DNA of 64,000 bases from Lama guanicoe (Eukaryota): NCBI GenBank assembly GCA_013239625.1, contig MU053792.1:197618-261617 (forward strand), given 5' to 3'. Position numbers and translations under genes: made by a program. The notes beneath the pieces are model-generated. The model had not been told where the DNA came from. It saw only the letters and a program-made list of their open reading frames with translations, and did no database searches. Positions within the stretch are counted from its first letter, which is position 1; each line of letters opens with the position of its first letter. This document shows positions 37,623 to 49,394 of the stretch, piece after piece.

Positions 37623-49394
<11,772 letters not shown>

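Follow-up and report, generated by a model that had tools for sequence, protein, structure and literature searches.

How the CARD-domain linker of camelid caspase-1 was rewritten, and whether the change alters the shut-off of the enzyme, is the question raised by the CASP1 gene of Lama guanicoe. Cleavage of this linker was reported to release caspase-1 from the inflammasome and to end its activity (Boucher 2018, PMC5839769). Human caspase-1 is described as using D103 and D119, and it shows p22 and p20 (Ball 2020, PMC7025033). The first-pass annotation of the guanaco locus had noted a proline-rich stretch without Asp at 103 in exon 3 and explained it by a compensated double frameshift, in which a G inserted at about 46352 and a base deleted at about 46334 re-coded about seven codons. 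In the window, which is the whole 64,000-nt stretch of contig MU053792.1 that was analysed, the minus strand carries an intact CASP1 gene and, after it, a CASP4/13-like gene. The features used are as follows.

49388..49394, minus strand: coding part of CASP1 exon 1, with the ATG at 49394 (ATG-GC-N-G and then a GT donor; no other such match lies upstream of exon 2)
48461..48727, minus strand: CASP1 exon 2, encoding the CARD; codon 92 begins at the last base of the exon, and an RNA-type contig has the joint 48461-46369
46307..46369, minus strand: CASP1 exon 3, encoding the first half of the CARD-domain linker; 63 nt, phase 1-1, bounded by AG and GT
46368..46369, minus strand: bases 2-3 of codon 92, which is Asp in camelids, as in the peccary, and Gly in the other artiodactyls; a candidate for a new self-cleavage site
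46332..46352, minus strand: codons 98-104 (VPTPPRP), the run of seven residues changed relative to the inferred ancestor
46334..46341, minus strand: where a short +1/-1 slip, if there was one, fits best (codons 102-104); the R103 codon is 46337-46335
43197..43312, minus strand: CASP1 exon 4, in which AVQD119 is kept; the Asp codon is 43295-43293
42521-42348, 41951-41717, 40785-40642, 38296-38187 and 37721-37623, minus strand: CASP1 exons 5-9, with the frame open to the stop
within exon 41951-41717, minus strand: the catalytic QACRG motif with C285

The reading frame of exon 3 is forced because exons 2 and 4 fix its phase as 1-1. The acceptor is strong, with pyrimidines at 14 of the 15 positions upstream of the AG, and a GT donor lies at the other end. 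The exon translates into 21 residues, ten of which form the proline-rich stretch in the alpaca, and the next frame gives the 11-residue reading quoted in the first-pass annotation. From residue 3 on, the 402 codons of the spliced gene encode a protein that matches the Vicugna pacos models P0041 and P0042 at 100% identity and the Camelus protein at 97%. It contains the CARD, p20 and p10 of a caspase-1 orthologue in one intact frame with catalytic H237 and C285, and its gene adjoins the CASP4/13-like gene. The exon structure, the CARD, QACRG at C285, D119, D297 and D316 are the same as in mammalian caspase-1, and the identity to the chimp, horse, pig, bison and whale proteins is 71–80%. On the other hand, the camelid protein differs in three respects: the stretch between 93 and 118 is free of acidic residues, the Asp is at 92 and not at 103, and exon 3 has more Pro. 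As judged from the sequence, the locus is most likely an ordinary caspase-1 gene in function. The gene, its 63-nt exon 3, the reading frame and the retention of AVQD119 had been identified correctly before.

Some observations were made on the surrounding DNA. In the 847-aa RefSeq alpaca model P0041, CASP1 and the CASP4/13-like gene are joined via two odd exons, 36118-35990 and 35293-35180 on the minus strand, and similar fusions of 800–850 aa are found in goat, sheep, yak, pika and bats. These models are probably read-through annotations, because CASP1 ends in a stop of its own and the following gene begins with a separate exon 1. The CARD of the CASP4/13-like gene (31753-31990, minus strand; exon 1 ATG at 35776) is about 6 residues shorter than that of whale, sheep and oryx caspase-13. 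No CARD16/17/18-like copy was found upstream of CASP1 within the window (49400-64000). Intron 3 contains an AAAG-type repeat of about 370 nt at 43745-44120, and intron 2 contains AT-rich low-complexity DNA at 47050-47500.

The proline-rich stretch lacking Asp at 103 is a real feature of camelid exon 3. It is present in all six camelid members of the protein cluster (alpaca, C. ferus/bactrianus and C. dromedarius). The Camelus version reads NIPTPLRPQP, and the alpaca and three Camelus species share the derived state. Exon 3 contains 5–6 Pro in camelids versus 0–4 in the 32 outgroups. Four sequencing runs were compared; X1 has no cover of exon 3, and X17 covers only its 3' part. In run X8, one contig spans 45500-46957 with its sole gap at 46608, outside exon 3; it has 11 other letters, and the 10 that are listed all lie outside the exon. 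In run X15, a contig joins 48461 to 46369 with GT-AG ends, indicating that exons 2 and 3 are spliced; it comes from a relative with 34 other letters in 836, and its RNA status is the guess of the tool from one study. An assembly or sequencing artefact, to which we give next to no probability, is refuted by the sharing of the stretch across the records of four species and by the independent contig without a gap in exon 3; any indels would not be assembly errors. No intermediate allele was seen among the six camelid records or the exon-covering runs, the contigs of which drop rare variants. Since the stretch is common to both camelid tribes, the change would predate the split of Camelus and the South American camelids. 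The codon for Ser109 (46317-46319, minus strand) is AGT where the inferred ancestor has CCN, which is a two-base change; Camelus has Arg at this place.

The distribution of the cleavage-site residues places the change in a wider frame. Asp occupies position 103 in 15 of the 32 outgroups and in none of the 12 other artiodactyls in the tree. The horse, most bats, the primates and the afrotherians of the set have D103, which therefore appears to be the older state. A wider count over 31 other artiodactyl records, which are related species and not independent events, gave 24 Glu, five Lys, two Gln and no Asp. Judging from these records, the absence of D103 spans the artiodactyls and is not an event of camelids alone; the statement of the first-pass annotation that orthologues carry Q-D here applies to the 15 outgroups and fails for the nearest ones. 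Under a slip, the probability of Asp in the artiodactyl ancestor is 0.37–0.59, with Asp and Glu about equal, so camelids may have lost Glu and not Asp. Position 92 is Gly in 31 of the 32 outgroups and in all 12 other artiodactyls in the tree; D92, which had been described as retained, is on this comparison a camelid gain. G92D is one transition and recurs in chimp/human, the porcupine and one bat-like record. The peccary (P0310) has D92 with K103, the same type of pairing as in camelids. Bovini (K103) and muntjacs (Q103) have lost the acidic residue and kept G92. D119 is found in 12 of 12 other artiodactyls and in 27 of the 32 outgroups, none of which lacks both D103 and D119. The owl monkey (P0332), with E103 and N119, has no Asp at 92, 103 or 119, in line with the loss of the p20-proximal site reported for New World monkeys (PMC11630849). 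The marmoset (P0312) has an exon 3 shortened by about 11 residues, and the cricetid rodent records have no AVQD119. With D92 and D119 present, the camelid protein is not of the hyperactive, CDL-uncleavable type, in which all linker Asp/Glu sites are absent.

In order to weigh the mutational routes, ancestral codon probabilities at the camelid branch point were inferred from the 32 outgroup proteins on a fixed tree; codon 100 was masked in six taxa in which it borders a gap, and Camelus was left out. The alpaca DNA was scored without indels and under all possible +1/-1 pairs. This simple model ignores CpG effects and has only proteins at its leaves, and real DNA could shift its figures either way. 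In exon 3, 12 of 21 residues differ from the inferred ancestor, and elsewhere in the gene 55 of 381. The run of seven changed residues at 98-104 is the only such run in the gene, the next longest being three. Exon 3 is also the least conserved region, with a mean identity of 0.47 among the 32 non-camelids versus 0.75–0.85 for the domains. The two-indel test rests on the protein outgroups and one 25-nt human primer (PMC8539739), the sole real outgroup DNA used; the D103N primer in PMC8566762 agrees with this primer sequence. A search for outgroup exon 3 DNA in metagenome contigs gave 142 pattern matches by protein alignment, none of which was confirmed, and a degenerate pattern gave none. The window contained no paralogous exon 3 copy and no CARD-only gene in which the former state might have survived. 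Of 15 short records in which the CARD end can be recognised, none is an outgroup isoform that uses another frame of exon 3.

The best two-indel alignment is a short slip with a C inserted at 46339-46341 and a base deleted at 46334-46335, which shifts 4–7 nt and re-codes two or three codons. It is the best in every setting and carries 0.69–0.91 of the weight among the two-indel alignments. Its gain over no indels is 5.7–8.6 log units and tops all 35 control windows of the gene (maximum 3.7), which are less diverged than exon 3. The proposed shift of seven codons (+1 G at 46352, -1 at 46334), with F-L-L-H-Q-D-S as the old frame, would explain the whole run of seven at once and is 1.5–4.5 log units better than no indels. 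However, its score is low: in the middle of the shifted block, L and H agree less well with the conserved N and T than the T and P of the in-frame reading do. Its weight is 0.002–0.013, and it lies 3.4–5.1 log units below the short slip, which fits about 30–170 times better. The human primer mismatches the in-frame reading at 13 of 25 positions, the long shift at 9 of 24 and the short slip at 8 of 24, and adding the primer changed the scores little. We therefore regard the seven-codon shift as very improbable; if indels occurred, the deletion near 46334 fits the data and the insertion at 46352 fits them poorly. Rewriting of the block by one complex event, or by two separate short slips at 98-99 and 102-104, is improbable as well. 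Taken alone, a second short slip at 46352-46347 gains about 5 log units, with a weight of 0.04–0.12, but four indels would be needed. No local template for a template switch was found: nearby DNA matches the block, on either strand, over 5–6 nt at most, which is no better than in shuffles.

The mutational route on which we settle, with modest confidence, is that substitutions alone rewrote the linker and that no frameshift occurred. On the camelid stem, a weakly constrained and disordered exon 3 would have accumulated clustered substitutions, namely about 9 in the bases of codons 98-104 together with G92D and four more, and the shifted-frame 'HQD' would be a partly fortuitous match. Such a burst is uncommon, as only 1500 of 43097 substitution-only simulations at the expected rate reached 11–13 changes. 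At this divergence, however, the observed gain of 7.1 log units was reached in 4.7%, 9.2% and 12.1% of the 1500 runs under three rates, and a run of seven or more appeared in 4–8% of the divergence-matched simulations. The linker Asp sites are reported to be variable in primates and rodents (PMC11630849), and even the short slip leaves the four changed codons 98-101 to point changes. The short compensated frameshift, which would have turned Q-D/E-S into P-R-P, is a reading that we hold possible and yet doubtful. It could have arisen in one slippage event or via an intermediate buffered by skipping of the symmetric exon. Such buffering is conceivable because exon 3 is symmetric and 383-aa models without it are on record in human, hippo, oryx, a bat and others; the GenBank C. 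ferus model P0002 skips exon 3, and the 383-aa camelid models keep it and lack the N-terminus instead. An uncompensated frameshift allele would stop after 4 or 50 codons. Indel pairs are also rare, with 15 multi-species cases in 21,208 vertebrate genes (PMC8935012). From the 1-nt insertion and deletion rates of 0.020u and 0.042u given there and a branch length of about 0.2 substitutions per site (1.2 x 0.168), the prior per two-indel placement is 3.4e-5. The summed likelihood ratio for two indels is 3e3–2.6e4. The resulting odds for a frameshift are about 0.35 for a neutral intermediate, and they fall much further if the route led through a null allele. The inserted base would be a copy of the one next to it, and such duplications are a common kind of indel. 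When it is counted as a duplication, the odds are perhaps about even. Therefore, substitutions are competitive once the rarity of indels is counted, and the double frameshift, despite its gain in score, is unproven and, if real, shorter than had been claimed. The first-pass annotation had itself named such competitive substitutions, and a lack of QD in outgroups, as points against its reading, and both hold in part. The camelid-wide linker variant itself is real, and exon 3 most likely represents a fast-evolving, skippable and disordered linker.

For the shut-off of the enzyme, camelid caspase-1 would be recruited through its CARD and activated by cleavage of the interdomain linker, and its release and shut-off would follow from cleavage at AVQD119 as in pigs, whales and ruminants. 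These relatives must also use D119, because there is no Asp at 103 there either. Glu is a poor P1 residue (PMC12550167) and is treated as a suboptimal site in the mouse (PMC5839769). By analogy with pig and cattle, camelid shut-off would proceed via D119. The effect of the proline-rich stretch on shut-off kinetics is probably small, since the claimed lost site is also missing in the even-toed relatives. None of the results speaks for the rigid PxxP segment of the first-pass annotation or for SH3 binding by the prolines, of which outgroups already have up to four in this exon. The best argument for altered kinetics, and against an ordinary linker, is the work on mouse E102/D103, which is called the major shut-off site and the mutant of which is hyperactive (bioRxiv 2025.04.28.651119; its methods once name E121N/D122N instead of E102N/D103N). 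The Casp1.CDL knock-in of that work resembles camelids in having no acidic residue at 102-103. In contrast to camelids, muroid rodents lack AVQD119, as seen from the cricetid records, so the CDL phenotype need not carry over to species that have this site.

It is also possible, but rather unlikely, that camelids moved the proximal self-cleavage to D92, so that the CARD would be released at D92 and D119 with kinetics unlike those of other artiodactyls. In the predicted dromedary structure (mean pLDDT 67), the CARD ends at residue 86 and residues 92-130 are unstructured with pLDDT under 50; D92 lies in a coil of low confidence, six residues after the last helix of the CARD. By motif and predicted disorder, D92 has the features of a candidate site, i.e. 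Asp at P1, small Ser at P1', hydrophobic Leu at P4 (L-S/L-P-D and then S) and a coil predicted to be accessible; this context matches the caspase-1 site preferences in PMC12550167. The residue is derived and kept in both camelid tribes, and the peccary pairing is in its favour. On the other hand, G92D takes one recurrent transition, in Bovini and muntjacs the loss of the acidic residue was not accompanied by a gain of D92, the two linker sites listed for human in PMC7025033 do not include D92, and a literature search found no paper on D92 cleavage. A joint reading has a short slip removing the acidic residue 103 on the camelid stem and G92D making a replacement site, repeated in peccaries. Artiodactyls would then have dropped D103 on both basal branches, with the timer on a different set of sites than in mouse and human. 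We consider this combination unlikely, more so than the D92 site taken by itself.

Pairs of compensatory frameshifts have been described as a class, in which there are 15 multi-species candidates and five high-confidence vertebrate genes (PMC8935012). A camelid slip would be like them in its poorly conserved segment, in both changes falling on one internal branch and in a 1-nt insertion with a 1-nt deletion. As in the pCFM class, the derived state is found in several species and has transcript support, here the exon 2-3 joint in X15. However, the camelid slip would span only 5–7 nt versus 7–99 nt in the high-confidence cases, and the camelid case was scored against protein outgroups and one primer. 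CASP1 is not named in the main text or the 11-gene table of PMC8935012, a scope outside which its 468-gene list lies. New World monkeys and some rodents likewise show a lineage-specific loss of a linker Asp while the rest of the gene is intact (PMC11630849). In their case, the missing site is the one next to p20, whereas artiodactyls keep that site and lack the upstream one; the paper covers primates and rodents only. No description of the camelid change was found in the literature on camelid caspase-1, linker evolution and the beta isoform, in a search that covered few subscription journals.

If confirmed on DNA, the short slip would add one more multi-species case to the short vertebrate list of fixed compensatory frameshifts. 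If neither the slip nor the D92 site is true, camelid exon 3 would show no more than the usual divergence of a flexible linker. Caspase-1 is switched off by self-cleavage of this linker, and the sampled artiodactyls, none of which has D103, offer a natural test of the timer site. The pig, cattle and camelid enzymes should rely on D119, and those of camelids perhaps also on D92.
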